This document shows, in pieces, positions 11,244-48,056 of a stretch of 64,000 nucleotides of DNA (positions are counted from its first letter, which is position 1; every line of letters begins with the position of its first letter). The notes under the pieces are model-generated. The model saw nothing but the letters and a program-made list of their open reading frames with translations. It ran no database searches and was not told the origin of the DNA. Source of the DNA: Candidatus Heimdallarchaeota archaeon (GTDB taxonomy: Archaea; Asgardarchaeota; Heimdallarchaeia; JABLTI01); NCBI GenBank assembly GCA_018238155.1, contig JABCTZ010000045.1, positions 1 through 64,000 on the forward strand. Reading direction: 5' to 3'. The position numbers and the translations under genes were made by a program.

Positions 11244-11658
11244 TTCACTCAATTTGATCAAAAAATGATAAAGACAAAAATATTATACCAATCTAAGCTT
11301 TTGAAACCTTCCCTCTTTCCTTATTATTTCGGTTATTCAAAAAAATTAGAGCGCATAGTAGAATCAATAACGTATGGAACTACAAGTTTAGGAAGCCATT
11401 TATTCGCAATGTTGAATTTAGCTATTAATGATTCCTATAACAAAAGATTAAAAATCACCAAAAGAATTATCTCATTATCGGTAAGTAATAGAGAAGAACT
11501 CGATACTATTAATGATGTTGAGATGTATTCCATCACTGACCGGGATACCCCTTAACTCTGAGAGGACAATCACCTCAAAGACAAGAAGGCTTGAAGCATA
11601 GACATAGATGCAAAATATTAAAAAGATATTTGATGAATAAAACAATGAGGTCTTTACA

Positions 11659-29327: not shown

Positions 29328-29562
29328 TATTTATTTCTCCTAGTAAGTTATAACTAACTAAATCTATTAATTTCATTATCTCATAATCAATAACAACATT
29401 TACTGATTTGAAGGTTTTTAATTAAATTACTACTTTTATAAGGTATTTTTACCTTTGCCACGAAAGAAAGCCACCTCCTTTAGGTGGTGGATGAATTTCG
29501 CTTGAAAATTCTTGCGATAATACAGATAATGACTATCATACTAAATACCATTGTGACTCCAG

Positions 29563-29694
29563 ATGGACTATCGAAGAGAAACTCACAAAGTATATTCATT
29601 ACATTATCACATTATTTTCGTAGTAAAATACCGCAAAAGAGTTTTCATCGAGGGGTCCAACTGTTGCCCTAAAATATGGACAAATAGGACATAG
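29563..29694 (+). pseudogene. tnpA: Truncated Y1 transposase TnpA (N-terminal ~31 codons)
   Basis: MDYRRETHKVYSLHYHIIFVVKYRKRVF is the classic TnpA N-terminus; breaks off at about 29655. Confidence 0.85.
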
Positions 29695-29713
29695 TAAAAT
29701 ATGTGAAAAAAAT

Positions 29714-31030
29714 TCAGTGAAACTTGTTGTATGGAACAATTTTCGGGAAATCTGTTGAATTGGGATCAAGGATCATAAAGCAGCGTTGATGATAAAGGGC
29801 ACCTTTACTGGTCCAGTGACCAAGACCATACACTCGATCACGCTCATTATAGAATCGAGTATGAAGGTGACCAAAAACAAGATGAGTTTCAGGAAGAATA
29901 TCAGGTAACCAAATCCTGCCTTTTTCGATCAATTTTCTTTTTGCTTGTTGAGCGGCAATTTCAGCACCCTTACTTTTAACAATGCTTGCATCTACACCAA
30001 CTTTGTTTCCATGAACAAATAATACTTGTTCAGAACCAACCTCTACTTCAGCATAATCTTGATGAAGGAAGTCTGTGAATTGCTCAAGATTACCATCATG
30101 GATAGAAGAGCTTCGAATAAACACTAGTTTAGACCAGAAGCCTTCTTTCATTGCCAGTTCTTTGAATTCACAGAAAGCTTGAAAGCTTTTCCCAGAAATA
30201 TTATCTAATAAATCACCATTAATGATAATAACATCTGCTTGCTTACTCTGTTGCTTAATTGTTTCAAAAAACTCTTCTTTATAGCAAAGCTTGTTTGTAA
30301 GATGAATATCTGAAAAGGCAATTATCTTGTTCTCTTTGAAATTCATCTGCTCTGGATTAATTTCTGATAACAATTCATCATTCATTTCTACCTCAGAAAT
30401 TTTTGCTAAATCATCAAATAACACTTTGAGTGATTCTTTCACACCTCCAGGAAACAAGCCAAGAATTTCGCCATAACAATTAATGCAACCATTTTTGCAA
30501 GAACAATCATTTAATCTTTTGAGCGTTTGAACAGCGACTTTTTGTAAATGAGTAAACAAATATTCAGAGTTGCCATTTGGATCACCTTTATCATAAACAG
30601 CTATTTGATTTGAGTTAATAGCCAAAGCAAATTCATTGCCAGGGATAGAAAGAACAGATTCGATCTCAACTTGAAGAACCTTGCCAAAATGCTCTAATAT
30701 TTTTTTTGTTTCAAGCTCTTTTGGTTTAACAATTTCGTTTTTCAAAGTAAAAATAATGCCATCAGACCGCTCAGTAATTGCTAACTCTTCTGATCTTTTA
30801 TGCGACAAATCTTGCAAGAAAAAGTCCTTCTTATCATTTTCACCAGCATTATCAAAAACAATCCTATCTGGATTAGAGTTGACAATTGCAGCTGGTGGCT
30901 GTTTAATTGACACATTGGAAAAACTAACAGCTAATAACTCTGTTCCTTTTGCTTTCTTGGAAAAAACACCAGAAGCTATCTGAGGGTCAAATAAGCGATT
31001 AGTTAAACCAAAAGAAGAACAAATACCAGT
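29714..31030 (-). pseudogene. 5'-truncated gene: DUF1998 (Hrq1/YprA helicase C-terminal Zn domain) fused to a calcineurin-like metallophosphoesterase
   Basis: VYD...G.S...CSCKNGCINC; SDIH, NGD, HD, VHG, GHLH; frame is open upstream of 30913 to the junction at about 31030. Confidence 0.7.
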
Positions 31031-31806
31031 CGAAAAATAGGATTGGTTTGATAGAGAAGTGGTTCTCGTAAGTGTTCATATTTTCGAGCGTTGATTGGTT
31101 GTCCATTGAGGAAATTAAAGAAGCGAACGATCCATTTGCATAAGATGTTCACATTCCAAGCATTAGCGTTTGACTGTTTGAACACCTCTATTTTTGAATC
31201 GAATTTTTTTTTCAGCAAGACAGCGAGGTTCTCTATGTGCTGTTTTGAAGCATCGATGATATTAATGAAATATTTCGCCAAGTGACCATCTCCCATGACC
31301 ACACCTGTAAGGTAAGCAAGGTCTTCAGAAAGAAAAAGTGGCAACCGGAAATTTTCACCTCGAGCAGATTGGAATTTAACAAACTCTTTTCCATTAAAAA
31401 ATTCTCGCCAATCGTCAAAAAGCCGGAAAATCGGAAAAGGTAATCGGTGCTGTTCTTCCAAATAATCGATGATCTTTTTTTGCCAATCTCTAATAAAGCG
31501 GTTATAATTTGAACCTTGAAAATAGTGATGCGTTTTTTCTGCTAAAGAAAGAGATTGTTTTCTAATTATTGTAATAATTTCTTCATCTAGGAGAATGTAA
31601 GGTAAAGACTGAAGAATACGTTCCCCCGTTACAAAATCCATCCGCCGAACCATGATGGAGTAAAGCAGGAATTTATCGTTAGTTGTGAAGATCTTCTCTC
31701 TTTGCTGGTCCTCTATAAGATCGTTTGCAGTAAACCAAGCGTTTTGTACTAATGGTTCAGCATCCACTAGTAAAGGATCCGTACGCCAATTGAGAAAGAC
31801 ACTCAT
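31003..31806 (-). pseudogene. 3'-truncated LAGLIDADG-family protein, paralog of 40047-41630
   Basis: Same N-terminal domain and LAYLTGVVMGDG; ends just before the second LAGLIDADG motif. Confidence 0.8.
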
Positions 31807-32002
31807 GAATAGATATTTCTCCTACAAGATAATAGTGACCACAGTTTTTAAATGCCTCTTTGTTTAGCTGTTCGAAAAGCTAAAAAATTAACTATTCTAT
31901 TAAGTAAAAGATAATACTTTCAGTCATCTCTCTAATAGACTATTTATATATCGAGCTAAACATACTAGTACGTAGAAAAGATCGCTACCAGGAGCATGTA
32001 AA

Positions 32003-33259
32003 ATGGAATTAAAGCGCGCATACAAGTTCAGACTCTATCCTGATGCGGAGCAAAGACAAGCTCTGCATAAGACATTTGGATGTTGCAGGTTGCTCTATAA
32101 TGTCATGCTTAATGAGCGAAAAGAAGTATATGAATGGCTAAAAGAGGATAAAGAAAGGTTGTACGCATACAAGTACAAGACCGAGAGGGAATACAAAGAA
32201 GAATATCCTTTCCTTCTAGAAGTGGATGCAAAAGCATTACAATCATCCACGTGGAACCTTCTGGTTGCTTATCAAAACTTCTACAGGGGTAAACGAACTG
32301 GTGAAAAGATCGGTCATCCAAAGTTCAAGTCTAAGAAGAGAAGCAAGGAGTCTTACACCACTCACAACATCAATAATAATATCAAAATTGACTTCGAAGA
32401 GAAAAAGATAAAGCTGCCCAAAATAAAGACCAGGATTGTTTATCGCGATAAACGAACCTTCGACGAGCAGATAAGACAAGTAACCGTCTCAAAAACCAAG
32501 AGCGGAGAATACTACGTCTCGATACTTGTCGAACAGGAAAGAGAAGTTAAAATAAAAACAGAGATAAAAGAAGAGAAAATACAAGCGTTCGACATGTCCT
32601 TCCTGAAATTCCTCGTGGCAACCGAGAACGAATATCAGAACCCGCGCTTCTATCGTAACGAGGAAAAGCGGTTGCAGAGACTACATCGACGCTTAAGTCG
32701 AAAAGAGAAGGGGTCAAAGAATCGCACAAAAGCACGAATAGATCTCGCACGGAAGTACCAGCAAATCAAAGATCGAAAGAAAGACTGGACGCATAAACTG
32801 ACTCATGAGCTATCGAAGGAATATGATGCGATTATTTTAGAGAACCTTAATATTGAAGGTATGAAGCAGTTCAATAAAGGGCATGCAAAGACCGTCACAC
32901 TTGATTTTTCTTGGGGACAGTTTGTCAGGGTACTACGATACAAAATGGCGCAACAAGGAAAGCATCTAGTGCTGGTCGATCGGTTCTTTCCCTCTTCAAA
33001 ATTATGCTCGAATTGTGATTGTAAGTATGATGATTTGAAGCTTAGTGAACGTAAGTGGACTTGTCAAGAATGCGGGGTCGAACACGACAGAGATCGAAAT
33101 GCTGCCAAGAACCTTCTAAAAGAAGGAATCACTATCTTACAGTCATTAGGAATAATGATAAAATCTACCAGCGGGACACGGAAAGTTACGCCTGTGGAGA
33201 TGATGTCAGACGCCACTCGTGGCGCAATCGTCGACGAAGCAGGAATCCACCCTCTTTAG
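32003..33259 (+). CDS. tnpB: RNA-guided endonuclease TnpB (IS605 group)
   Basis: RAYKFRLYP HTH, RuvC D (AFDM), E (ILENL), CxxC/CxxC, D (DRDRNAA). Confidence 0.95.
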   Translation: MELKRAYKFRLYPDAEQRQALHKTFGCCRLLYNVMLNERKEVYEWLKEDKERLYAYKYKTEREYKEEYPFLLEVDAKALQSSTWNLLVAYQNFYRGKRTGEKIGHPKFKSKKRSKESYTTHNINNNIKIDFEEKKIKLPKIKTRIVYRDKRTFDEQIRQVTVSKTKSGEYYVSILVEQEREVKIKTEIKEEKIQAFDMSFLKFLVATENEYQNPRFYRNEEKRLQRLHRRLSRKEKGSKNRTKARIDLARKYQQIKDRKKDWTHKLTHELSKEYDAIILENLNIEGMKQFNKGHAKTVTLDFSWGQFVRVLRYKMAQQGKHLVLVDRFFPSSKLCSNCDCKYDDLKLSERKWTCQECGVEHDRDRNAAKNLLKEGITILQSLGIMIKSTSGTRKVTPVEMMSDATRGAIVDEAGIHPL

Positions 33260-33358
33260 GGGGTGGTAGTTCAACTATATTTAGTATTACAATCAATTGC
33301 TATCTTTCAAAGAATTTAAATAGCTGATATCTTCATTTCGATTCATTGGTGTTTCATA

Positions 33359-34133: not shown

Positions 34134-36656
34134 TCACTCCGTAATAAATTTTTTATGTATCTTCAAATAATCTTGTGTCTCTTTACTATCAAGTATTTGA
34201 TTACCGCCTTCGCATCGTATTGAGAAAATATGCTTTCCTTCTTTTTTTATAAAAACTGGAGTATCTGAAGGATTAATATTAATTATGCAAATATCTTTAC
34301 TCTCAATTTTTAGAAAAGATATATTGTAGAAGTCATTATACTGAGGACCAATGTAACTATTTATACAGTCTTTCAAATATAATCTAAAACCATCTCTATT
34401 CTGTTTTTTTTTCTCGGGAAAAGTTAAGTAATCAATTTCTAAACCACCTATTTCTCCAGAATCTTTTACTCCTATAATCAGTTGACCACCATCAGTATTC
34501 ATCATGGAACTAATCGTTTTAACTATTTTAAATTTCAATTCATTATTTATTTCTTTTTTATGTTTATTAAATCTCATATATTCTTTATATTCAAAGGTCT
34601 TTGTTTCACCAATACTGATTCTGTGTTTTATTTCATCTAAATCGTCTTTATGCGCTCGATCTAAATCTATACCTACATCTTTTTCGGATCGATTAAGATA
34701 CCATAATCTTGCTAATAATCTATATTCAGTTATTTGATCAGTTTCAAGATGACCTAATAAAAATAACTTTTCTAACTCTTTTGCAGCTCTACTATTAACG
34801 CCATTAATTCTAGAAAGAGAAAGAGCAATCCAGAATTTTATATAATCATCTTCAATTGAATTCAAAATATTCTGAAGGAAAAATATCGTATCTGAACCAC
34901 CTATTTTGCCTAAAGCGTAAATCGCTTTTGCGCTAATCCTTTTATCATTACTTTTCTCTGAAATTTCAGTTAAATAAGGTACTATTTTTTCTGCTTTATT
35001 TCCAAGTAACTCTATTACGTGTATTATTTCCCATAATTTATTGGAATCCTTAATTGATAGAAGTTTAATGAGTGCAGATATGCCCTTGTCTCCATTTATT
35101 GTTGAAATAGCATATGTTGCTGTTCTAAATATATCATCATCTCTTTTAACAATTTCAAATAAAAATGGTATTACACTTTCGTCACCTATTTGTCCTAATG
35201 AATTAATAGCCTCATCTCGAATTATCTTTTGTGTATCATTTTGCATTGCTCTAACTAGAGAAGGTATAGATTCCACAAATTCTAAAGTTCCTAAAGCTCG
35301 TGCAGCATCGAATCTTACCCAAGAATTAGAATCGTTCAACAAAGCTTCGCATAGAGCATCCATTACATCAATTTTTTTTACATAACTGAACTTTTGAGTT
35401 ATTATTCTTCTATTTTCAAAATCTGAGTCATTTTTTAATAGATTAACAAGTGTTTCTGTTAGATTCTTGTTTTCAAATATAGATAAATCATCATTAAAAT
35501 TATTTAGTATTTCTTTTCGTTCTTTTACTTTTGTTTTATTTTGTAGAATACCTATTATTTTATCAGTTTTGCCTGATTGTAATGCTTCTAAATCTGATAA
35601 CTTATTATCATCTGCAATTGGGTCAAATTCTTCCTCAAATGATACCCATTGATTAGCTGTTAATTCACCATCACTATGCATTTCCCAATAGATACTAAAG
35701 CTAATTTCTCTTTCTCCAGTTTCTGCTAACAAACAAACTAAATCAAATTTTATTAAATCATTTTTTGGATCTTTTATTGCTTCGATTAAGATTTTTTGGA
35801 CTTTTTTACTATTTTCACAGACATTTTGGAAAATTCTCGCAGCATCCTTTCTAATTTTAATATTATCTTCTCTCTTTATTATCTCTAGGAGATCTTCTTT
35901 GCCACTTGAGATTTCGCCAATTTCTAATAGAGATTTGTACGCTTGCTTTCGAACCTTTGAGCTTCTATCTAATTGCTTAACTAAAATTAAAACGATGATT
36001 ACTTCTTTATTACCAAGAATTTTACCAAAGAATTTAGCTACCAATAATCTAATTCTGTAATCATTGCAATTTCTTATTGTTTCAACTAAATCATCAAATT
36101 CTTTATCTTCTATTTGATTGAAAACTGAAAAAAGTGTAGCATCAATATCTTCATCAGATAATAGTTGAAGATTATTACTCATTTTTATTAATATTTTAAT
36201 TAAGGAAAATAAATTATCTTCGGAGATTTTGTGATAATATAACATTAGTTCTAATGCTTCTAAAATTGCAACTAGAGCTATATCTGCTTTTTCCTTTTTA
36301 AGTGATTCAATTAAGAAAGGGAAAATATCCCTTGGAAGAATATGAAATCTTCCAATACACCAAAATGCTACAGATCTTATTCGGGGTATGTTGTGATCTC
36401 TACTGATTTTGATAAGAGCAGGTAATGCCTCAAGAGCCTTCATTTTCCCCAATAAGTATCCTGCTTGCCAACTTTTATCGTAATCTTTACTATTAGCTAC
36501 GATTTCAATTAAATCTTGAATAGGTTTATCTGAATAACCAATCAATTTAAGTAGATTAGGTGATTCCCACCAAAGATTATCCACTCTCAGATATTTAATT
36601 TGATTAATTGATTTTCTAAATTCATTTTCATTTAATTCCACTCTAATTACATCCAT
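34134..36656 (-). CDS. HEAT-repeat protein with C-terminal Schlafen/AlbA_2 domain
   Basis: Many VR..AA.ALG HEAT units; C-terminal GETKTFEYK...ISSMMNTDGGQLIIGVKD. Confidence 0.85.
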   Translation of the reverse strand: MDVIRVELNENEFRKSINQIKYLRVDNLWWESPNLLKLIGYSDKPIQDLIEIVANSKDYDKSWQAGYLLGKMKALEALPALIKISRDHNIPRIRSVAFWCIGRFHILPRDIFPFLIESLKKEKADIALVAILEALELMLYYHKISEDNLFSLIKILIKMSNNLQLLSDEDIDATLFSVFNQIEDKEFDDLVETIRNCNDYRIRLLVAKFFGKILGNKEVIIVLILVKQLDRSSKVRKQAYKSLLEIGEISSGKEDLLEIIKREDNIKIRKDAARIFQNVCENSKKVQKILIEAIKDPKNDLIKFDLVCLLAETGEREISFSIYWEMHSDGELTANQWVSFEEEFDPIADDNKLSDLEALQSGKTDKIIGILQNKTKVKERKEILNNFNDDLSIFENKNLTETLVNLLKNDSDFENRRIITQKFSYVKKIDVMDALCEALLNDSNSWVRFDAARALGTLEFVESIPSLVRAMQNDTQKIIRDEAINSLGQIGDESVIPFLFEIVKRDDDIFRTATYAISTINGDKGISALIKLLSIKDSNKLWEIIHVIELLGNKAEKIVPYLTEISEKSNDKRISAKAIYALGKIGGSDTIFFLQNILNSIEDDYIKFWIALSLSRINGVNSRAAKELEKLFLLGHLETDQITEYRLLARLWYLNRSEKDVGIDLDRAHKDDLDEIKHRISIGETKTFEYKEYMRFNKHKKEINNELKFKIVKTISSMMNTDGGQLIIGVKDSGEIGGLEIDYLTFPEKKKQNRDGFRLYLKDCINSYIGPQYNDFYNISFLKIESKDICIININPSDTPVFIKKEGKHIFSIRCEGGNQILDSKETQDYLKIHKKFITE

Positions 36657-36775
36657 TTCCTAATTCAAATTGAATAATAAGTTATAATATTAGCTTTTGA
36701 TATATGTAAATCTCATCCTAAAAGCTTTTCAAGCATACTAAAAAGACTTCTCCAATTTTCTAATGATCCTTGTAA

Positions 36776-37294
36776 CTATTGTGTGTCATCATTCGGAAGA
36801 ATAATTAAATCTTGAAAATCAGTGATTCGCATATTTTTATCCAGCTCCATCTGTTGCTTTTCAGCTTTCTTTTCTTCCTGTATATCCTCTTCTGTTGGAA
36901 ATATCTTCCACCAAAGTTTCTTAATTTGTTTAGGAATGACTATAACAGTAATACCAAATAAAATACCACAAACAAGAAAATATCCAAAAATATTAGAAAT
37001 ATATTTCCAATCTTCGCGTAATAGATTTCCCCATTGAGAAATATCCTCACTATTAACAAATAACCGTAATAATTGACCTGAAAATACCACATAAAGTAAT
37101 GATACAAATGCACCTAATGTAAAAATAAATAGCACAACTAATAGGAGATAACCAATCTTCTTTATGGTATTCGTAAACCATATTTTGGTATTATATAAGA
37201 GAAAAAGAAATAATACATAATTTCTTCTTTGTCTTAGTTTTAGATCTCTCTTAATTAGAAATTCATTAAATTCCCTATTGTTCAATAATGTCAT
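36776..37294 (-). CDS. Hypothetical membrane protein
   Basis: 2-3 hydrophobic segments; GGTGT RBS. Confidence 0.6.
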   Translation of the reverse strand: MTLLNNREFNEFLIKRDLKLRQRRNYVLFLFLLYNTKIWFTNTIKKIGYLLLVVLFIFTLGAFVSLLYVVFSGQLLRLFVNSEDISQWGNLLREDWKYISNIFGYFLVCGILFGITVIVIPKQIKKLWWKIFPTEEDIQEEKKAEKQQMELDKNMRITDFQDLIILPNDDTQ

Positions 37295-37444
37295 AATTAC
37301 ACCTATATAAACAATGGAAAACCTGAGTATAAAAGGCGTTTTATGGCAAAATTTGTAATCAAAAATTACAACAAAAAATGCGATTATATTATAAAAGAAT
37401 ATTCAATTCAGCAAATTGAATTATTAAAGAGCTGATTCTATTAG

Positions 37445-37471
37445 AAAAAAGTTATCCCTAGAAGGGATAAC
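37445..37471 (-). terminator. Hairpin + U-tract terminator
   Basis: GTTATCCCT/AGGGATAAC stem followed by T6 on the minus strand, 20 nt after the 41-aa ORF. Confidence 0.6.
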
Positions 37472-37491
37472 GAAATTTTGAAGATAAAAGA

Positions 37492-37617
37492 TCATTCATC
37501 TTCTTCATCTTCAGGATTAAGTTGTCTGCTGTGATTGTCAATATCATCCTTATAAGCAGAATTGTTGGGATTTTTCACGTTAGATCTTTGATCATTTCGA
37601 GATTGTCTTTTAGACAT
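37492..37617 (-). CDS. 41-aa Asn/Asp-rich peptide, not in ORF track
   Basis: MSKRQSRNDQRSNVKNPNNSAYKDDIDNHSRQLNPEDEEDE; GAGGTGA RBS; own terminator. Confidence 0.7.
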   Translation of the reverse strand: MSKRQSRNDQRSNVKNPNNSAYKDDIDNHSRQLNPEDEEDE

Positions 37618-37880
37618 TATGATTTTCACCTCTTTTTATTTTATTAAAAAGAAACAATAAACCACATGCTTCAAGAGTTTGTCTTTATAAGGAAACAGTT
37701 TTTGTATATATGTTTACACCTTTTCTTGAGCAAACATTACTATGAAGCACTTGAAATTCACCATTTCAAGGCAAGTAATCTAATAATTACTCAATACAAA
37801 AACGTTCAACCAACATTAAAAACCTTTACAAATTCACTTCATGACTTCAACTTTATTTTGTTAATGGCTTGCTCTTTTTT

Positions 37881-38030
37881 CTATTTTCGAATGACCATTG
37901 AGCCATTTTCCAAGGTAATAATTAATGTATCACCTTTTTCAATATTCAATTCTTCGGCAATTTCAAGTGGAATGTTAATCATCAGACTATTATTATTATC
38001 CTGAACTTTTCGCTTAAATTTTATCGGCAA
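37881..38030 (-). CDS. AbrB/MazE/SpoVT DNA-binding protein, not in ORF track
   Basis: RKVQ..NNSLMINIPLEIAEELNIEKGD.L; TTG start after GGTGA. Confidence 0.85.
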   Translation of the reverse strand: MPIKFKRKVQDNNNSLMINIPLEIAEELNIEKGDTLIITLENGSMVIRK

Positions 38031-38106
38031 TATCATTCACCAATATAAAATATGATAATGGAAGCATTTAAATATTATTATTACCAATTGGTTATATGGT
38101 GGTAAA

Positions 38107-39705
38107 ATGTCTTCATATTTCAAAAATTATTATTTCAAAATAACTCTCCCAAAAAGCAAAGAAGAATACTTGGGCAATTTCAAAGATTTAATAGAGACAG
38201 CAACAAGTCAATCACTGGAGAGACTCTGGTCGGAAGAATGGATAATACAGTTAGGAACAACTACGGTAAAAGCACATTCCATTGTTACTGCAGGACGTAT
38301 AAACATTGAACAAGAAGGGGAAAAAATATATCTCCCCTCTTGAGTGCGAATGGGAATAGCAGAACGTATTGGTAGAATTCTAAGAAGTCAATATAAGAGA
38401 ATGAGATGTTTCAATGATTGTTTGAAAATCATAGAAATTGTGGGAGTGAATGAAAGCGAAAGCAAACTCATTAAATTAATGAACCAGACCTTTAAAGGGT
38501 CCAAGAATAAACCATATTATAAGAAAGTGCTACTACTACAAAACATCCGATTGATTAAAAATTGGCAACAAAAAATTAGTGTTGATTTTCATATGTTATC
38601 TTACTGTAACTTAGTGAAACCAATAATTAAAAATTTTGTTTTTCCTTATAGTCCAGATAACTACCGAGAATTAGATTATGTTATTAAACATACCAGTATT
38701 TGGTTTAAAATCAGACTACCAATAACAACCAATTCCAGAAGCATTAATGATTGGGAGTGGATAGAAGGACAAATTCCTATACCTGAAAAACTACAAGAAA
38801 AAATTGATGAAAGCACAAACCAACACCCAAAGAAACCAAGAATGATAATAAAAACACTCAAGGGAGGAAAGGAATATTTCTTTTTCAGTTTCCCTTGGGA
38901 TTTTAAAAGGAAAATAATGGAACGTAAAGAACGAGCTCGCGCTCTTGCTGTCGATCTCGGTTTGAAGAAAATTGCTACCGCAGTAGTTTGCGAAAAGGAC
39001 AAGCAATTATCAAAACCAATCTTCCTCAAGGTTACTTCAAAACAATATCAACATATTGAACGATTATACAAACGCCTTCAGGGGATATCTTTACAAATGA
39101 AAAGAAAACTTGGAGATCATCGAAGACTGCAAGAAGAACAAGCAAGAATTTATAGAAAACTTTCTCGAATAAAACATCAGATTGTACAAACAACTGCTGT
39201 AATTCTCATTGACAAAGCGAAGCAATGGAATTGTAATGAAATCATTCTTGAGGATTTGCGAACTTTCAGTCCTAAGAAGGGATTAAAGAAATGGTCACGA
39301 CGATTAAATGAATGGTTATATGGACAAATTACTCAAATATTAGAGTATAAAACAAAGGAAGAAGGAATTAAACTACTAAAGGTTGCTCCTTGGGGAACAT
39401 CTAATCATTGCTCAAGATGTACTAACACTCAAGGTTTGAAAGTGATAAATCCAACTAATCTCACACCAAAAAAAAGTGGGAGATGGTTCTATTGTCCAAA
39501 TTGTGGATTCAACGTTGATAGAGATTACAATGCAGCTTTGAATATTTTCCGTGCAAAATTCATCAATTATCGGAAAATAAAAAGTCTTAAAGACACCAGC
39601 CCTATCCCCTATACGGAGATAGGAATCCCTTCGCCCAACTGTTCTTGGCGAAGGTCCAGAAATGACCTAACAACTACTCAAGTGGTGTTAGTGACTGGGG
39701 GGTAA
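38107..39705 (+). pseudogene. tnpB: Large TnpB/Cas12f-like nuclease split by an in-frame TGA (38341-38343)
   Basis: 78-aa and 453-aa ORFs are in one frame (YLPS*VRMGIAE); RuvC VDLG, LEDL, CxxC/CxxC, DRDYNAA. Confidence 0.85.
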
Positions 39706-39800
39706 AGAAAATTCTTAACCTAAATGAAAAGAACGGTTAGGTTTAGGACCTTGCGTTTTAAAAAGAGTTGCAATAAAAAACAAATTTGGACAATAGGTGA
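39595..39800 (+). ncRNA. Putative omega/re-RNA overlapping the 3' end of the large tnpB (ends approximate)
   Basis: Consecutive hairpins CCTATC/GATAGG, CCTTCGCC/GGCGAAGG, CTAACA/TGTTAG at the position expected for a TnpB guide scaffold. Confidence 0.5.
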
Positions 39801-39857
39801 TTTTTTATACCATAGTAAGCATTTATAAAATCTAAGTGAAAAAATTCTCTTAGTTCT

Positions 39858-39945
39858 GCGGGGATAGCCCAGCACGGTCAAAGGCGCAGGATTTAGGCTC
39901 CTGTCTCGTAGGAGTACGCGCGTTCAAATCGCGTTCCCCGCACCA
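39858..39945 (+). tRNA. tRNA-Leu(TAG)
   Basis: GCGGGGA/TCCCCGC acceptor, CAGGA-TT-TAG-GC-TCCTG anticodon arm, long variable arm, CCA. Confidence 0.95.
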
Positions 39946-40046
39946 ATCACACTATTTTCTTTTATTTATTGTTTCTTTCATTCATTGTTTTAAACTAAGA
40001 TGACTTTAAGAAAGAAAAAATGTACTATTATTACAGGAGAAATTAG

Positions 40047-41630
40047 ATGCCTGCATTCTTACGTTGGGATTCAGATCCATTACTACTCGATCCAACACCA
40101 CTAAAGCAAAATACTTGGATAACAGCAAATAGATTACTAGCGCAAGAACAACAAGAAAAATTTCTTACTGCATCAAAATATCTCTTTTTGTATCCTATTT
40201 TGATCCGCAAAATTGATTTTATTTCTGGGGAGCGCATTTTACAATCCTTTCCATATATCGTACTAGATCAAGAGTGGGCATTAAGAATTAGAAAACAATC
40301 ACTTGCTCTTGCAGAGAATTCTCACTACTATTTTATGGGTTCCAATATTTCTAAATCTGTTCGTGGTTGGCAACAGAGAATCATTTCTTACTTGGATGAA
40401 CAACAGCGACTTCCCTTTCCGCTGTTCCGGTTGGTTCCATCCTTTGAGGATTTTTTTCAAAGGAAACTAGCAGTACAATTCCAATCTGCTCGCGGAAAAA
40501 ACTATTCCATTCCAACAACTCTTACTAAGCAATTAGCTTATTTGTGTGGAGTTGTTAATGGTGATGGTCATCTCCACCGACATTGGCTCAGAGTTGTAGA
40601 TGAAACGAAAGAACATATTGAGTTGATTTCTGATTTATTTGAAGAATTATTTAGTGATTCAGGTGAGATTTTTCTTACTGGCAATGCTTGGAATGTCGAA
40701 TTACGTTCTTCTTCTGCTGTTCGATTATTTAATTTCCTTACGGACCAGACGATTCAGGGAGCAAAATATGATTCACTTAGAGAACCGTTTGTATTTCAAA
40801 AACTGGGTGAACCATATCGAAGTTTTTATTGGAGAGGTGTAATGGATGCAGATGGTTCCTTTAAGCAACACATTTCATTTGGTAGTGCAAGTGAAAAATA
40901 TGTAAAAGATTTTAACGACTATCTGCATTCTATTGGTATTCAATCTAAACAGGGAAAAATAGGTACAACAGCTTTTAATCTCACTATACCGGCACTTTAT
41001 CGTTTGCAGTTTATCAAACGAATTGGGGTAAATAATCCAAAAAAAAGAGAAGATATGTTGCAATTATTTTCAAAAATTCGATGCAAATTTAAGGGATTAA
41101 ATCAAAGAAAATTGCTCGAAGGATTGTATTTCAACTTTCTTGAAATCCCTGCTCTTAATGTAAGAGGACTTGCTATTCGAATCAAACAATTAAGAGGGGA
41201 GAAGACAATAAAAGAACGCAGTCAAGAACTTAGTATTGCAACAAATCAGTATCAAGCCTATGAAAAAGCAACTCGAGCAATTCCGATTAGAACAGTACAA
41301 AGGTTATTTCTGAAATCTCCAAAAGACCTAATGAATCTCTTATCAAAACAAACTAGTCTTTTGTATCAAATAGCATCTTCACAATCAATCAAACTACCAA
41401 TACAAGTTACAAGTAGTATAATTGAATTATTGAGCTTATTTGAGCCAACTTCGAATTATGTTAAAATTCTTCTTGAATTACCTCAAATTCAACAATATGT
41501 AAATGAAATATTTGGATTACCACTAATAAACAATCGACTAAACAGTAGATTACTAGTTACTTTTTGTAGAACTTTTGGATTGTATGAAAAACCAAGTGTA
41601 TCAGAAATTGATATTGAACCTTTTTGCTAA
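40047..41630 (+). CDS. LAGLIDADG endonuclease-like protein with unknown N-terminal domain and XRE-HTH
   Basis: LAYLCGVVNGDG and WRGVMDADG motifs; IKQLRGEKTIKE..QEL.I....YQAYEK..R.IP HTH. Confidence 0.85.
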   Translation: MPAFLRWDSDPLLLDPTPLKQNTWITANRLLAQEQQEKFLTASKYLFLYPILIRKIDFISGERILQSFPYIVLDQEWALRIRKQSLALAENSHYYFMGSNISKSVRGWQQRIISYLDEQQRLPFPLFRLVPSFEDFFQRKLAVQFQSARGKNYSIPTTLTKQLAYLCGVVNGDGHLHRHWLRVVDETKEHIELISDLFEELFSDSGEIFLTGNAWNVELRSSSAVRLFNFLTDQTIQGAKYDSLREPFVFQKLGEPYRSFYWRGVMDADGSFKQHISFGSASEKYVKDFNDYLHSIGIQSKQGKIGTTAFNLTIPALYRLQFIKRIGVNNPKKREDMLQLFSKIRCKFKGLNQRKLLEGLYFNFLEIPALNVRGLAIRIKQLRGEKTIKERSQELSIATNQYQAYEKATRAIPIRTVQRLFLKSPKDLMNLLSKQTSLLYQIASSQSIKLPIQVTSSIIELLSLFEPTSNYVKILLELPQIQQYVNEIFGLPLINNRLNSRLLVTFCRTFGLYEKPSVSEIDIEPFC

Positions 41631-41835
41631 AAAGTTCTAAATAAATATAAAACTCTATCACACAAATCTTACAAAGTATATGAGGGACGTATTTCCACAG
41701 CATTTTTATCATTTAGAACGGTTTAGATGTGTTTTTCTTGATTTTAAAGCAGTGTATATTTTTCGAAAGTCCAAAAATTTATCCTTTCCTGTTCAGAAGG
41801 TGAGAAAGTCCGATTTTTTTCCATTGAAAAAAGAG

Positions 41836-42605
41836 TTATATTTCAGAAAGCCCAGCAATTTTCTGCTTTTTTATGTTAATTCTTTGGCAAATTTCTCTAT
41901 ACAAGCAATCTGTAGTGAATATATCACACAATCTTCTTTCTTTTTTATTGATTGACAGATTAACATGTCTTTTCGTATTTTATTCAAATATATCTCAAAG
42001 GCTTGAATGTTTTCAGAAGTTACTTCTGCTTTCTGGAATTGTCCTGTGAAATAATAGTAAACACCAATTTCTGTTACTTTTTTAATATTGATTAAATCCT
42101 GGTGTGGTAGTATATTAGAAATCAAAACGGTATAGAATAATAGTTCTTCTTCATCAAATTCCCCAGGATATGGTTTGTATTCAACTATTCGACAATTTCC
42201 TTGATCATCTAATTGATCTATTCTATCTATTTGTCCTCTATACTTTGTATTCTTTAGAAAAAATTCTACAGCTACTGGTTCCCAAAAAGTCTTTTGTTGT
42301 TTATATCTTTTTATTTCGCTGTCTATGAATTGTTTCTTCCACTGTTCATTCTTATCTGATTGTCCCAATAGAGGATAGAGATTATTTTGTATATCTTCGC
42401 CAAATTTCTGAAAGAATTTTTGCAACCAATGATGTCGTTCTATACCCTCTGCTAAATTTGATTCATAATCAGAATAATCCTTTCTTACACTTTTTTCTGT
42501 TTGTTTATTTAATTCTTTTAACAGATAGAATTTGAAAGGGCATTTTATGTATGCAATAAATTCCGTCTTACTTAGATTAGAACTTCTCTTGAGCAATTTC
42601 TTCAC
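41836..42605 (-). pseudogene. Cas4-like PD-(D/E)XK nuclease with a 2-nt insertion near the C-terminus
   Basis: S......Y..CP, G...H, E, GQIDRID, VEYK; removing TG at 41925-41930 restores C-DIFTTD-C-LYREI-C. Confidence 0.8.
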
Positions 42606-42671
42606 TAATTCTCGTTGTGAATTTTCTTTTTAAAGTTCAAAATAAGTCATTTAGCTCTTTTTAAGCATTTT

Positions 42672-43364
42672 TTGTCATTAGAATATATGACACTACTAGA
42701 AAAACACAAGGAGTTTGGTAATGATATGATTAAATTGACTAATGTAGAACAATCTATTGTTTATTTCTTTTTATGGCGAATCATCAATTTAGAAGATGAT
42801 TGGTTTGAAGGAGGAATTAAGAATCTAGCACAAAAACTAGGCCGGCATGAGAAATCCATTGCAAATTCAATTAAATCCTTAGAATCAAAGAAAATGATTG
42901 CTACCTCAAAAATCAAAAATAGAGTTTGCTTAAAACTCTCACTTTCTGATGATGAACTTTATTCTAGATTAGCATTCATTAGTGATACTTTTTGCGCTCC
43001 TATATCCATCCAAGACTTGAAAGAGGATCTTGAGAATGAAAACAAGCGATTAGAAGAAGAAATAAAAAAATATGATAAATTGCTATCAATCCAAAAAGAA
43101 GAGGACAGGATAATTGAATCTGTTGCTAAACAAATATCCAGAAAGGATATTGAAGAATTAGCTAATCGAATTGTTGTTACTAGGACTTATGCTAATATTA
43201 ACAAAACTCTTGATGAAATTATTCGAGAGGAATTAGAGAATTTTCGAGCTAAGATGTTTTCGAAGTATGGAAATATCGATGTTAATAAACCTCCAGAAAC
43301 CAAATTGGATGGTTCTTTAATTTACGATAATTTTTGGTTGAAAGATAAAGAGGGAGTATCATAA
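42672..43364 (+). CDS. wHTH + coiled-coil protein
   Basis: IKNLAQKLGRHEKSIANSIKSLESKKMI HTH, followed by heptad repeats. Confidence 0.75.
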   Translation: MSLEYMTLLEKHKEFGNDMIKLTNVEQSIVYFFLWRIINLEDDWFEGGIKNLAQKLGRHEKSIANSIKSLESKKMIATSKIKNRVCLKLSLSDDELYSRLAFISDTFCAPISIQDLKEDLENENKRLEEEIKKYDKLLSIQKEEDRIIESVAKQISRKDIEELANRIVVTRTYANINKTLDEIIREELENFRAKMFSKYGNIDVNKPPETKLDGSLIYDNFWLKDKEGVS

Positions 43365-43378
43365 AGGTATTTTGAGGT

Positions 43379-45262
43379 TTGAGATTGGAAAATAAAATAC
43401 AAAAAGAGATTTTGAATTATATTACTAAGCAATCAAATAATAATCCTGTAACGATCAAACAATTGGATGAATATTTAGGATATTCTAACAGTCTTGTTCA
43501 CAGACATACCAAAATTCTAGAGAGGGCAGGAGTAATAGAAGGAAAACGAGTTGTACAAACAAAGGGCGGAGTTACCCTTTACAAGTTACCAGTTAAAGTA
43601 TGGCCTGATTATCTTGGAAGGAAATGTTTTGATTGTCATAATAAGAGTGCGATTAATACTTGCACTTTTCACGAGGAACTAGCAGAATTTGGAATAATTG
43701 ATGAACTGAACAGAGTTGGAGTGAAATTAACAAAAAATACTTTTGCTTGTAGTGATTTCATTGTCAAGAAAACCCATTGGAAACGAACTAAACTAGATGA
43801 CTTCTTAGATAAGTGTAGAGTTATTACACAGACTAAAATTGGATTTGAGATCAGTTATCATTGTCCGTATTGTAATGCTGAATTTGTATCATTAGGTAAT
43901 GGATTTATTGCAAAATTTGGGAGTTCAGTTTTACGTTGTAATCAATGTGAATCCTTTTACAAGATTCTTTTTGATACTAAACGAGAAGTGTTTATTGTTC
44001 ATTATAATAAAGAAAAAGGAATAGAGTACAAAAGGAATTTTGTTAATAAAACCAGGCTTGAAGAACCTGAGAAACTATACTCAAGTGATAGCTATGGTAT
44101 TGTTATTCATGATTTTTCTGACTGTGAATTTAATTTCAGAACAAGAACTTTGGCAGTTACTAATTGGATTGGAAAACTAGATGAATTGAAGTATATTGTT
44201 GCAAAAAAAGAACAGGATTATAAAGAGTTACAAGTATTACTTGAAACAAAAGGTTTCAATGAAATTAATTTGATATTAGGAGCAGATAAATTAGTTAGTC
44301 CACCTCCAACCAAACAACAAGTAGGCATGCTTAGATTATTACGAGTAATGATGATTATTAACAAAGAATTTTGTATTGCTATGTTAATAAGCAGGATAAC
44401 TGTGATTGAAAAAATACATTTTCTATTCAGAAGACAAAAAGAAGTACTGGTAAGAAGAGCTGTTACTAGAATTGAAGAAATAATAAAGGAAGTAGAAAAC
44501 AAAACATGGTTAATACCAAAAGAGTGGAATAATTATGAGATGAGAGCAGGTAAGGAGATGTGGAGAGTTATTGGTAACTATTTAAAGTCAATTGATGTAT
44601 TCTTTCCAGGAAGAGTAGATAGTAGATTGGTGAATGATCCCTCTATTCCTCATAGAGTATATTTTGCCTTTTCAGCGATTGATTCATTGATAAATGGTAC
44701 GTATAGCAAAAGTGGAGAATTTGTTAAAGAGTATTGTTCTGAGATTGGATTTTGTTGGGATGGGTTGCCAGGTATCTGCCATGGGAAAACTTCTGGTGGA
44801 GTTTTTGGATTGCATTTAGATTTGAGAGAGCAAGAAAAAATTCTAGTGTTACCTTATTTACTAGCTGCAATACTAGAGAAAAGAATAGATATCAAAGATG
44901 TTCAATATTTACGAGGGAGAAAGAGAGAAAAGATTTACTATGTTCGACCTGAATCAGAATTGGATGAACAATTAATGAAAATAGTAGAAGAAACGTTAAC
45001 TGGATACCTCAACGATAGAATTTGTAAAACGGTTATTAGAGACTATTACTTGCACTCCAAGCAATGGTTAAATGATCTAATTAGAAAAAGTAATTTTCAT
45101 GAAGTAGAACATCATGGAGTTGATTATCAACCATGGGCTATAATAAATGAGCGTGTATGGGAAATGATGGGAGGTAAAGAAAGAGAAAAATTAATTTGTA
45201 AAATACAACAAGAGCATGTGAAAATGGAGTTCAAACCACTTACTGTAATACAAATAAACTAG
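43379..45262 (+). CDS. Cas1 homologue fused to N-terminal wHTH and Zn-finger domains
   Basis: YEMRAGKEMW...FPGR, AIDSLINGTY, GICHG, LHLDLREQ correspond to Cas1 EG.AA..YW..F..R, N.LLN.GY, GF.H, L..DL.E. Confidence 0.75.
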   Translation: MRLENKIQKEILNYITKQSNNNPVTIKQLDEYLGYSNSLVHRHTKILERAGVIEGKRVVQTKGGVTLYKLPVKVWPDYLGRKCFDCHNKSAINTCTFHEELAEFGIIDELNRVGVKLTKNTFACSDFIVKKTHWKRTKLDDFLDKCRVITQTKIGFEISYHCPYCNAEFVSLGNGFIAKFGSSVLRCNQCESFYKILFDTKREVFIVHYNKEKGIEYKRNFVNKTRLEEPEKLYSSDSYGIVIHDFSDCEFNFRTRTLAVTNWIGKLDELKYIVAKKEQDYKELQVLLETKGFNEINLILGADKLVSPPPTKQQVGMLRLLRVMMIINKEFCIAMLISRITVIEKIHFLFRRQKEVLVRRAVTRIEEIIKEVENKTWLIPKEWNNYEMRAGKEMWRVIGNYLKSIDVFFPGRVDSRLVNDPSIPHRVYFAFSAIDSLINGTYSKSGEFVKEYCSEIGFCWDGLPGICHGKTSGGVFGLHLDLREQEKILVLPYLLAAILEKRIDIKDVQYLRGRKREKIYYVRPESELDEQLMKIVEETLTGYLNDRICKTVIRDYYLHSKQWLNDLIRKSNFHEVEHHGVDYQPWAIINERVWEMMGGKEREKLICKIQQEHVKMEFKPLTVIQIN

Positions 45263-45272
45263 GAAGGAAAGG

Positions 45273-45875
45273 ATGGATGAAATTGTGCCACTAATAGAGG
45301 AATTACAAAAACTTACAGATTTATCAAAAGATTGCTTAGAAGAACTATTAGTTGAACAAATCAAAAGAATTGTGGAAGAGGATACTGAAATAATTTATCA
45401 AATAATATATTTATTTGTAACAGAAAAAATAGATCTAGGATATTCTAAGGAGTACTCGTTATCAGAACTCCAGGAGAAATTACCTTGGAAAAAGAGTCGA
45501 CTGATAGAGAAATTACAAAAAATAGTGGAAGAAGGTGTACTTGTACACAAAAAAAGAAAATACAAACTAAAAAAAGAGAATGAGCTAGTAAAGAGAAAAT
45601 GGAACTATTATAATGAAACAGGATTTCAAGAAAAAGAGAAGAATCGTGAAATATGGAAATTGATACTAAGGAAAAAGGAATTGGAAAAGGCATGTAATGA
45701 GAAATTGAAAATAGAGGATAAAACAAGATTTAGGGAATTAAAAGTGAACGAGGAAAAGATATATAGAAAAGAGATAATTGACGAGATAAAATCTTTCTTT
45801 AATGCAAAACAACCAACATTAGAATTTCTAGAAAAAAACATAATAAGAACAATGGGTTATAAGAAAAATAATTAG
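45273..45875 (+). CDS. wHTH-domain protein
   Basis: SLSELQEKLPWKKSRLIEKLQKIVEEGVL....KYKL. Confidence 0.7.
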   Translation: MDEIVPLIEELQKLTDLSKDCLEELLVEQIKRIVEEDTEIIYQIIYLFVTEKIDLGYSKEYSLSELQEKLPWKKSRLIEKLQKIVEEGVLVHKKRKYKLKKENELVKRKWNYYNETGFQEKEKNREIWKLILRKKELEKACNEKLKIEDKTRFRELKVNEEKIYRKEIIDEIKSFFNAKQPTLEFLEKNIIRTMGYKKNN

Positions 45876-46064
45876 AAAGAGAAAATTCTGCTTCAAACAA
45901 CAACTCGCAATAAACTCTAAAACACCTATATCCAGAAGGGTGATGGGGGGGAAAAAGAAGGAAAAAATCACAATAAGTATATATAAAATTCACTCTTAAA
46001 AATACAGCAGATAATCAAATCTCTTAAATAATATACAAGAGCTGTAAGTGTCAAGGGATAGAAA

Positions 46065-47243
46065 ATGGATGACTTATTAGAAAAGGAATTAAAAAGGCCT
46101 TCTTTAATTAAAAATCCAAGAATCTTAGATTTAAAATATCTACCAAAGAAACTTCTCCATAGAGAAGACGAACAAAGAATGTTAATCAAATATTTCAAAC
46201 CAATTATTGAAAATTCTGGTAAGTATTCTCAAAATGTAACAATTGTTGGTCCTGTAGGAACTGGAAAAACAGCTATTGCTCTTAAATTTGGTGAAATGAT
46301 TAAAGTATATTCAACACAAAAAAGTATTAACTTAGAATATGTTCATGTAAATTGTCGTAGAGCTCGATCAAGTTTTCTTACTATACTTGAGATTGCGAGA
46401 AAATTTAATCCGAATATACCAGTCAAAGAATTTAAGCCAGATGAAATTATTAACATGCTTGTCAATTTACTTAACCAAAGGAATTCTTTTTTGATTATTA
46501 CATTAGATGAAATTGATTTTATCATTCAGAAGGAAGGTTCAGATTTTCTTTATGATTTGACCAGGCTTACTGATGATGAACTGGATGAGAAGGAACGTAT
46601 ATCTCTTATTACAATAGCTCGTGAAAGTGAATTTAGAAAATTATTGGATGATAGTACTCTTAGCACTTTGAGACAAAATATAATTTCATTGGTACCGTAT
46701 AATGAAGATCAATTGAGAGATATAGTAAAAGATAGAGCGAATGAAGCTTTTTATGGAGACGCGGTTTCAGCAGAAGCTATTGATTTAATTTCAGATATAA
46801 CTTCAAAAAAAGGAGATGCTAGATTTGCTATTGAATTGTTGGAACGTGCTGGTATGTATGCGGATCACAAACAGTCATTAAAAGTTTTACCAGAACATGT
46901 AAGACATGCAAATACATTAGTTCATCCTATAATTAGACAAGAAATTGTTACAGATTTAACAAAGAAACAACAAATTATTCTATTAGCTACTGCAAAACAA
47001 CTTCTGTCAACTAATAAAGCATATGTGACTTTAGCTGATGTAAAAACTGTTTACAAAGAACTGTGTAAGGATTATAAGCTGCCAATAAGTGAACATGCAC
47101 AAATATTAGAATATCTACAACATTTAGAGTATTGCAATTTGATTGCAATAAAATATAGTAAAAAGAAAAAGCAACAGACCTTGATTAGTTTGTTGGATGT
47201 TTCAGCTGAAATAATTAAGAAAACAATTATGGAACAATTATAA
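46065..47243 (+). CDS. cdc6: Orc1/Cdc6 replication initiator
   Basis: YLP..L.HRE, GPVGTGKT, VNC, LDEID, GDAR.AI, C-terminal wHTH. Confidence 0.93.
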   Translation: MDDLLEKELKRPSLIKNPRILDLKYLPKKLLHREDEQRMLIKYFKPIIENSGKYSQNVTIVGPVGTGKTAIALKFGEMIKVYSTQKSINLEYVHVNCRRARSSFLTILEIARKFNPNIPVKEFKPDEIINMLVNLLNQRNSFLIITLDEIDFIIQKEGSDFLYDLTRLTDDELDEKERISLITIARESEFRKLLDDSTLSTLRQNIISLVPYNEDQLRDIVKDRANEAFYGDAVSAEAIDLISDITSKKGDARFAIELLERAGMYADHKQSLKVLPEHVRHANTLVHPIIRQEIVTDLTKKQQIILLATAKQLLSTNKAYVTLADVKTVYKELCKDYKLPISEHAQILEYLQHLEYCNLIAIKYSKKKKQQTLISLLDVSAEIIKKTIMEQL

Positions 47244-47303
47244 AAAACTGCAAATGACGTAAATGCAATTAAAATTAAAGATGAAGATACGACTGAAGAT
47301 AAA

Positions 47304-47846
47304 TTGGTGAAAGATGTAAAAAAACTTCTAAAAATGTCATTTGAAGGAAATTTCTTTGACGTTAAAAGTGCATATGATAAAACAAATAGAGCAGAAATGA
47401 CCAAAGATATAATCGCTTTAGTAAATTCATCAGAAGAAAACAATAATACAGCATATGCAATAATTGGTATTGTAGAAAAAAATCAAAAATTCGTTTCGGT
47501 AGAAAATGTGGAGAAAATAGATATCATAGAACAAAAGATTGTGCATTGTATAATACATAATACTAATCGAAAAATAAATCTACAAATAAGAAAAATAAGA
47601 ATCTATGAACTCTATCAATGGCAACAAAATAACGAAATTACAGATGAGATAGTTTTTACTGAAGAGCAGAAAAAACTGGAAAGCAAAGAGCAAATATTAG
47701 TAATACAATTAAAGAGAGAGCCAAGAGTGGTTTATGAATTGGCAAAGAAAACAGGACCATATGAAAAAGGGAGATCATGGAAAAGAATTGGGTCACATAC
47801 AGATGAATTAACACAAGATGATAGAGAAAAGCTAATGAAAATTTAA
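47304..47846 (+). CDS. Schlafen/AlbA_2 domain protein (possibly 5'-truncated)
   Basis: EGNFFDVK...KDIIALVNS...IIGIVE...RIGSHT. Confidence 0.7.
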   Translation: MVKDVKKLLKMSFEGNFFDVKSAYDKTNRAEMTKDIIALVNSSEENNNTAYAIIGIVEKNQKFVSVENVEKIDIIEQKIVHCIIHNTNRKINLQIRKIRIYELYQWQQNNEITDEIVFTEEQKKLESKEQILVIQLKREPRVVYELAKKTGPYEKGRSWKRIGSHTDELTQDDREKLMKI

Positions 47847-47923
47847 ATCAATAAAGGATTAATTCTAAGAGACTTGAAATCAGAAAGAAATGGTAATATT
47901 CTGATCGTAATTAAGATATCTTT

Positions 47924-47965
47924 TCTCGTAGGAGTTCACGTGTTCGAATCGCGTCCCCCGCACCA
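47924..47965 (+). repeat. 3' fragment of a tRNA-Leu (att-like repeat)
   Basis: TCTCGTAGGAGTTCACGTGTTCGAATCGCGTCCCCCGCACCA; 5 mismatches to 39904-39945. Confidence 0.9.
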
Positions 47966-48056
47966 GTTCTTGATGTCTATAATAAGATATTAATAATCTA
48001 TTGAAAACTAGGTTAGTGTAATATTAATAACTATTGATTTCACGAAGTGAACTACT

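Follow-up and report, generated by a model that had tools for sequence, protein, structure and literature searches.

To our knowledge, the integrase action of Cas1 has been known from two settings only, namely the uptake of spacers into clustered regularly interspaced short palindromic repeats (CRISPR) and the transposition of casposons. Divergent Asgard Cas1 homologues, together with ARAMP loci, were reportedly described by Makarova et al. in CRISPR J in 2020. These are Asgard-specific and extremely diverged Cas1 genes outside CRISPR loci, some of them being called "possibly associated with novel MGE" (mobile genetic elements) in a review that cites this work (PMC8730458). In Heimdallarchaeum, tRNA-linked elements were described for which a homing-endonuclease homologue was proposed in integration, with Cas1 unmentioned (Wu et al. 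2022, PMC8813620). No paper combining Asgard, Cas1 and LAGLIDADG was found in the literature searched. The present analysis concerns a window of 64,000 nucleotides (nt) from Candidatus Heimdallarchaeota archaeon (assembly GCA_018238155.1, contig JABCTZ010000045.1, positions 1 to 64,000), and within it an 8-kb block that lies between a tRNA-Leu(TAG) gene and a copy of the 3' end of that tRNA and carries a five-gene cassette with a Cas1-like gene. This analysis identified empty sites, a minimal version of the element with five genes, a swap of cassettes, and the status of an accompanying cdc6 gene as cargo.

The genome of the window is designated G000, and other G numbers denote congeneric genomes; C numbers denote contigs, of G000 unless another genome is given, and L numbers public or metagenomic loci. 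That the block is an acquired insert is almost beyond doubt. In G001, G002, G003, G004 and G011 the site was found empty, with the order JAB - tRNA-Leu - ATP-binding cassette (ABC) ATPase - major facilitator superfamily (MFS) and nothing in between; it is occupied in G000, G009, G010, G005 and L056. Based on the empty sites in these five congeners, the 8-kb block is an insertion, and the insertion at a tRNA gene that an initial annotation of the window had supposed was supported. ARAGORN and Rfam (50.2 bits) found tRNA-Leu(TAG) as the only tRNA in the region, and its 3' part is repeated at the far end of the block over 47 nt at 85% identity (39899-39945 against 47919-47965; 42 nt at 88% by blastn), so that both the tRNA and the distal copy reported at first were confirmed; chance does not account for the repeat. 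The distal copy differs from the 3' end of the empty-site tRNA of G001 at 2 of 41 positions and adjoins the ancestral downstream flank, the window being 90% identical to G001 from 47924 onward, so that the fragment represents the former end of the host tRNA. Compared with the empty site in G001, the insert extends over 34157-47923 and is not confined to 39946-47965. The repeat-bounded block of the initial annotation stood, and the TnpB gene at 38107-39705, directly upstream of the tRNA, had been overlooked. Together, 34157-39857 and 39946-47923 make up a 13.8-kb mosaic insert around the tRNA, and the 8-kb block is the right-hand part of this mosaic island in the tRNA-Leu(TAG) gene. A search for a 5' fragment of tRNA-Leu where the larger insert begins on its left side in the window found none; G009 has one.

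Seven open reading frames (ORFs) of at least 180 amino acids (aa) lie between the repeat copies, and the gene content first read from them, comprising Cas1-like, Cas4-like, winged helix-turn-helix (wHTH), cdc6, LAGLIDADG-HTH and AlbA genes, was borne out throughout. The 627-aa protein encoded at 43379-45262 is, as judged from its structural model, a very divergent Cas1 fold with intact active-site residues, in agreement with the Cas1 assignment made earlier from sequence features. Pfam recognized the wHTH but not Cas1 in the window copy, and searches of PDB sequences, with the single sequence and with a profile, returned wHTH matches only. Two members of the family passed the Pfam Cas_Cas1 cut-off, and a profile comparison with the canonical Cas1 of the genome gave a sensible alignment that was not significant (E 0.52). 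The Cas1 identity was settled by the fold search alone. An AlphaFold model built with 24 homologues reached a predicted local distance difference test (pLDDT) of 82 and a predicted template-modelling score (pTM) of 0.79, and its top Foldseek matches were Cas1 chains only, at 11-14% identity in the structural alignments. H468, D481 and E484 are invariant in the family and position 387 is always E or D; E387, H468, D481 and E484 align with the catalytic E, H and D/E residues of the canonical Cas1, whose sole gene lies on contig C15. Invariant cysteines were found in residues 75-236. The family is small: a set of 5.8 billion clustered proteins contained 27 members and a set of 1.8 billion representatives 19, every named member being from Heimdallarchaeota. 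Of 10 congeners, 8 had matches to the Cas1-like superfamily, and 30 genomes from other genera of the class had none; with 0-14 matches per genome, the distribution is multicopy, patchy and limited to one genus among the genomes examined.

The functional core of the window block is a five-gene cassette (39946-45879) in the order LAGLIDADG nuclease, Cas4-like nuclease, wHTH protein, wHTH-Zn-ribbon-Cas1 and wHTH protein. The same five genes in identical order were found in C43, C13, L001-L006 and L053-L058, and C42, C17 (two) and C19 contain Cas1-like paralogues of greater divergence, all of them close to a LAGLIDADG gene. The recurring tRNA anchoring expected of such loci was observed: of the 16 loci of the 627-aa type, 12 have a tRNA, or a fragment of one, no more than about 100 nt away from an end of the cassette, with at least three tRNA identities (Leu-TAG, Val-GAC, Ala-GGC) and two uncalled tRNA-like genes concerned. 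Between the stop codon of the last gene and the 3' end of tRNA-Val(GAC) there are 1-23 nt in C13, L001, L002, L004 and L055; the stop codon is 61 nt from tRNA-Ala(GGC) in C43, and 11-22 nt from other tRNA-like genes in L057 and L058. In C43, a 10.2-kb element is bounded on one side by an intact tRNA-Ala and on the other by 31 nt that repeat the 3' end of this tRNA (30/31), and a search of this element for a recombinase found none. The closest relative is the metagenomic locus L053, with a Cas1-like protein 77% identical to that of the window and a cassette of 74.8% nucleotide identity to window 40186-45879. There a tRNA-Leu 3' fragment starts 3-9 nt past the last stop codon, leaving no room for another integrase on that side. 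The sequence after this fragment shares the motif ATTCTAATA with the ABC-upstream flank of the congeners and is thus probably the same flank. Furthermore, the tRNA array of C13 contains, further along, leftover 3' ends of cassettes that match the copies in C13 and C43 at 93-94% identity, which indicates repeated arrival of such cassettes. The five-gene cassette is probably the mobile unit.

Among the scanned island ORFs, Pfam (for the polymerase also NCBIfam) showed no Cas2, family B DNA polymerase (PolB), or tyrosine or serine recombinase; the Cas2 scan took in the sole free-standing small ORF (91 aa) and left out two antisense ORFs of 93-94 aa inside cassette genes. Nothing array-like was detected by Tandem Repeats Finder in the whole window, where Rfam gave the tRNA only, and no recombinase was found in the 25-kb island of G009 at the tRNA-Leu site, so that the absences listed in the initial annotation extend to that island. 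Genome-wide, PF00589 had three matches, none near the islands, and PF00239 and PF16795 had none. A split integrase of the SSV type at the borders was considered and rejected, the border ORFs being the LAGLIDADG and AlbA_2-like genes, neither of which overlaps the repeat. As far as the sequences tell, the Cas1-like protein is the only candidate for DNA joining that recurs at the tRNA junctions. A model was tentatively proposed, at slightly less than even chances, of a self-integrating cassette that targets tRNA 3' ends with Cas1 as its integrase; that the Cas1-like protein has this presumed catalytic part is held with the same reserve. In the model, the Cas1-like integrase would join the element to the tRNA 3' region and a 30-47-bp copy of the tRNA end would result at the far side. 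The other four proteins are given putative roles: the LAGLIDADG enzyme would cleave empty or donor sites site-specifically, the Cas4-like nuclease would trim DNA ends, and the wHTH proteins might bind the element ends or act in regulation. The features of the locus are collected in the table.

Table. Positions of the features in the window, counted from its first nucleotide
Feature	Coordinates	Strand	Remarks
Second block lacking from the G001 empty site	34157..39857		HEAT-AlbA_2 840-aa gene, small ORFs, TnpB
TnpB (Cas12f-like)	38107..39705	+	stops 152 nt before tRNA; in-frame TGA at 38341-38343
Intact tRNA-Leu(TAG)	39858..39945	+	sole Leu-TAG gene found genome-wide
Proximal direct repeat (variable arm, T-arm, acceptor strand and CCA of tRNA)	39899..39945	+	
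Left trailer, T-rich, 100 nt, between tRNA and first cassette gene	39946..40046	+	conserved in G009
Double-motif LAGLIDADG endonuclease-like protein, free-standing, 527 aa	40047..41630	+	core residues 160-345
Cas4/RecB-like PD-(D/E)XK nuclease, 244 aa, divergently transcribed	41871..42605	-	PDDEXK_1, 7e-13
230-aa protein	42672..43364	+	weak CasR/Csa3/TrmB-type HTH at 47-86, coiled-coil tail
Cas1-like protein (structural prediction), 627 aa	43379..45262	+	wHTH 1-74, Cys-rich Zn-ribbon region 75-236, both Cas1 domains 237-627
200-aa protein, last cassette gene	45273..45875	+	wHTH-like N-terminal half, charged coiled coil
Cargo segment, lacking from L053	45880..47918	+	orc1/cdc6, AlbA_2/Schlafen-like gene
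Orc1/Cdc6	46065..47243	+	TIGR02928 273.5 bits (cut-off 181); Cdc6_lid 8e-22; Cdc6_C 1.9e-12
AlbA_2/Schlafen-like protein, 180 aa	47304..47846	+	no Pfam match; language-model features 0.94
Distal repeat, ancestral host tRNA-Leu 3' fragment, contiguous with conserved ABC/MFS flank	47919..47965	+	

Among the partner proteins, the LAGLIDADG protein has a pseudo-dimeric core in which two motifs supply the acidic residues of the catalytic site, both catalytic Asp (D173, D269) being invariant across homologues, and an XRE-type HTH follows the core at about 374-436. The Cas4-like nuclease of the window matches Pfam PDDEXK_1 and not the Cas4 model; its family, represented by six homologues, has D...D/ExK motifs, an N-terminal Cys motif and three C-terminal Cys. 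The 200-aa protein was recognized as wHTH-like by inspection of the family alignment, the Pfam matches being sub-threshold only. Scans of the island proteins with PADLOC and NCBIfam gave nothing beyond HTH domains and Orc1. A complex of the Cas1-like protein with the 200-aa protein was predicted with a score of 0.40 (best of three controls 0.00), the contacts agreeing by at least 80% between runs and the partner reaching a pLDDT of at least 61. The mark set for such scores was met by 58 of 80 solved complexes and by 2 of 110 mismatched pairs; with a score of 0.60 or under, only 7 of those 80 complexes, but both mismatches, reached it. The support for the complex was weak and the result was not used.

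At the occupied tRNA-Leu site of G009, a 37-nt 5' fragment of the old tRNA is kept at the ancestral place, and about 7 kb past it come TnpB, the tRNA and the LAGLIDADG start as in the window. A different Cas1-like variant, a 1378-aa fusion, follows together with a helicase-phosphoesterase and a type I restriction-modification system, and the island ends with cdc6, AlbA_2 and the tRNA fragment as in the window. Between G009 and G000, the Cas1-like variant has thus been exchanged inside an otherwise conserved island frame, with a breakpoint inside the LAGLIDADG gene. In G010 the order is JAB - tRNA - LAGLIDADG; the tRNA is a hybrid (G7, T66), and the distal fragment measures 32 nt. The tRNA-Leu of the window departs from the ancestral type of the genus in both halves, by an A7:T66 pair and in the anticodon stem and loop.

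Several observations weigh against a self-integrating Cas1 cassette. The repeat copies are not identical, at 85-88% over 42-47 nt in the window; the repeats elsewhere measure 31 nt (C43, 30/31), 35 nt (G005) and 32 nt (G010). No inverted repeats pairing the island ends were found, 4 of the 16 loci have no tRNA at either end, and paralogous cassettes within the genome are only about 67% identical in DNA, giving no sign of very recent transposition. The LAGLIDADG end faces the tRNA at the Leu site and the opposite end faces it at the Val and Ala sites, and these two orientations suggest a better fit with transposon-like insertion. The 6-kb tRNA-Leu island of G005, with its 35-nt repeat, has neither a Cas1-like nor a LAGLIDADG gene, so that integration there cannot rely on a cis-encoded copy. 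The Cas4-like gene of the window may itself be impaired, as its aberrant C-terminus (41871-41960) suggests: an 11-residue gap was found, the sequence diverges after C226 and two alignable C-terminal Cys are missing. In addition, the tRNAs on the cassette side carry variants unseen in the distal fragments, namely T66 in G000, G009 and G010. In C13 (164894-165002) the tRNA-Val is different as a whole, its T-arm and both acceptor strands being unlike the distal fragments at 175536, 176107 and 179127. Since these fragments match the tRNA-Val type of L002 and L004, the functional tRNA-Val(GAC) gene of C13 looks like a replacement brought by the element. Such variants fit an element-borne or co-converted tRNA better than a target duplication by staggered Cas1 cuts, and suggest an origin as from site-specific recombination or LAGLIDADG homing. 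An alternative in which the staggered chemistry of spacer acquisition lets the Cas1-like enzyme place DNA of kilobase size into tRNA genes, the 30-47-bp tRNA end being duplicated as if it were a CRISPR repeat, is quite unlikely; it would include action in trans on cargo-only cassettes, as in the island of G005 and in the arrays with multiple repeats that G000 has at tRNA-Ala and tRNA-Val. If true, it would constitute a natural Cas1-driven gene-capture array, functionally between casposons, integrons and CRISPR arrays, in which the Cas4 and wHTH partners foreshadow the adaptation complex. Homing proper, in which the LAGLIDADG enzyme cuts unoccupied tRNA sites, the Cas4-like nuclease resects, and copying by homologous recombination co-converts the tRNA, would leave the Cas1-like protein with another role such as first-time ectopic insertion or regulation. 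The double LAGLIDADG core with its two invariant Asp agrees with this, as do the breakpoint inside the G009 LAGLIDADG gene and the replacement of whole tRNAs beside the cassette (A7:T66 and anticodon stem-loop in the window; acceptor strands of the C13 tRNA-Val), which resembles co-conversion, and a homing-endonuclease homologue of HeimM2 was proposed as a site-specific integration factor (Wu et al. 2022, PMC8813620). Yet homing alone neither yields direct repeats of tRNA ends nor moves between different tRNA genes, and the Cas1-like gene is conserved equally with the LAGLIDADG gene and has an intact active site; homing is given a small chance. A less improbable rival, close to the second option of the initial annotation and still judged rather unlikely, is a CRISPR-less Cas1-Cas4 system for defence or DNA capture, with the LAGLIDADG protein as effector or accessory, that rides in tRNA-inserted islands placed by an unrecognised trans-acting integrase or by allele exchange through homologous recombination. 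The G005 island, the swap of the Cas1-like variant within the G009 frame, the resemblance of the wHTH domains to CRISPR regulators of the Csa3/CasR type, and the defence-island company of a type I restriction-modification system (G009), toxin-antitoxin genes (L001, L002, L055) and a TIR-domain gene (L058) all point that way. What speaks against this rival is that in 12 of 16 loci the cassette, and not other cargo, adjoins the tRNA junction itself and that the cassette is the last item before the tRNA fragment in L053, that PADLOC defence models were unmatched save for HTH domains, and that no candidate integrase was found near the islands examined.

The initial annotation also raised cdc6 as a possible replicator of the element, and this was not supported. 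The rival that follows from it, a plasmid- or virus-like replicon copied by its own Orc1/Cdc6 after Cas1-mediated excision, or a casposon minus PolB, has an intact orc1/cdc6 inside the repeat-bounded block in its favour, with the AAA+ domain, lid and C-terminal winged helix all present, and the gene is kept at 89% identity in G009. However, island cdc6 genes occur only in G000 and G009, at one chromosomal site, and cdc6 was missing from every other cassette locus that was examined, L053 at the same tRNA among them; nor is it part of the stretch that was exchanged between G000 and G009. The island gene is a paralogue, 68-69% identical, of a core cdc6 located 32 kb downstream, which eight congeners carry and which had no match in G009. 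Upstream of the island cdc6, at a distance of about 100 nt, a G-rich box at 45930-45965 (CCAGAAGGG...GGGGGGG) has a faint likeness to an origin recognition box with a G-string and is present in a single copy; no repeated origin-box-like elements were found around cdc6, nor any PolB or terminal inverted repeats. Such a replicon is very improbable, and it is just as hard to credit that cdc6 replicates the element. Since the L053 cassette runs directly into its tRNA-Leu fragment, 45880-47918 is an addition in the window, and cdc6 with the AlbA_2-like gene is passenger cargo gained at the tRNA-Leu locus and not a replication module. In G009 (L045, C63 5897-7684), Orc1/Cdc6 and the AlbA_2-like protein form a single ORF of 595 aa, and a stop separates the two genes in the window. 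BLASTP of the 180-aa protein against the AlbA_2 domain of the upstream 840-aa protein gave no match.

Some further features surround these islands. The 840-aa protein (34134-36656, minus strand), in the block lacking from the empty site, has five HEAT repeats and a C-terminal Schlafen/AlbA_2 domain. The TnpB orthologue in G009 is an uninterrupted ORF of 532 aa. Since TnpB ends 152 nt before tRNA-Leu, any omega-RNA with its guide region would reach up to or into the tRNA. On C11 of G000, TnpB-like genes at 32783-33220 and 126127-126663 are followed by co-oriented tRNA-Arg(TCG) at 33337 and tRNA-Arg(GCG) at 126890, respectively, and a LAGLIDADG-gene fragment (124533-125270) lies near the latter pair. 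Window 29455-33274 is a further insert relative to G001 and G009; it contains the C-terminal 399 aa of a helicase-MZB-phosphoesterase (72% to the C17 copy), a 267-aa LAGLIDADG-gene fragment and a second TnpB, and resembles a wrecked cassette of the Cas1-fusion type with the Cas1 gene gone. A conserved trailer motif after the tRNA CCA was dropped as an element-specific feature: it follows 10 of 32 tRNA genes at one mismatch and was taken as a general T-rich terminator feature. In L045 (G009:C63, about 7851-11501), a further insert of 3.5 kb, which encodes a dCTP deaminase and an unknown protein of 469 aa, lies between the tRNA fragment and ABC, flanked by a 39-nt duplication of window 48005-48043. 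The cargo of the G005 island (L050, C53 2480-8322) is 72% identical to C39:9026-14962 of G000 beside tRNA-Pro(TGG), and the same cargo thus sits at different tRNA sites in two species; a 3' fragment of that tRNA-Pro, 32 nt in length, lies at a distance of 12.8 kb (C39:21545).

If the self-integrating cassette is real, it would give Cas1 a third setting, a compact PolB-less and array-less element at tRNA ends with Cas4-like and homing-type partners. This would bear on how Cas1 and Cas4 were joined before CRISPR, and may explain how this Heimdall genus makes tRNA-linked islands without conventional integrases. With defined substrates in the empty sites of five relatives, both window junctions and the minimal version, the function of the divergent Asgard Cas1 proteins becomes directly testable in vitro.

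Compared with known systems, the window element is not a casposon. The casposon-like label of the initial annotation holds only loosely, for a Cas1-bearing insert; it does not extend to PolB and terminal inverted repeats, neither of which was found. Casposons (families 1-4), whose casposase is a Cas1 homologue, share with the cassette a gene of the Cas1 integrase family, but the cassette is without a family B polymerase or terminal inverted repeats, and its Cas1 has an N-terminal wHTH and Zn-ribbon, with LAGLIDADG, Cas4-like and two wHTH proteins as partners. Family 2 casposons generate a target-site duplication of 14-15 bp, a short one beside the imperfect repeat of 30-47 nt at the cassettes. 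With the CRISPR adaptation module of Cas1, Cas2 and Cas4, the cassette has in common the predicted Cas1 fold, the catalytic E/H/D/E residues, an adjacent Cas4-like nuclease of a four-Cys family, and a repeated target segment of the length of a CRISPR repeat; it differs by the absence of Cas2, array and effector genes, and by inserts that are kilobases long. Elements with tyrosine or serine recombinases leave a distal tRNA 3' repeat and an empty site in relatives, as the window island does. Those with tyrosine integrases of the SSV or pTN3 type likewise target tRNA 3' ends, displace a 3' fragment, accrete in tandem and carry extra cdc6 cargo, whereas the window island lacks a tyrosine recombinase, and its borders do not contain a split integrase gene. 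Among free-standing LAGLIDADG enzymes, the window protein has a single-chain double-motif core that is closest to archaeal intein and intron enzymes, and as in HeimM2 of Ca. Heimdallarchaeum its gene is part of a Heimdall-group mobile island beside a tRNA. Unlike LAGLIDADG homing endonucleases, the cassette gene lies outside any intron or intein, encodes additional domains (N-terminal and HTH), and always occurs together with a Cas1-like gene.

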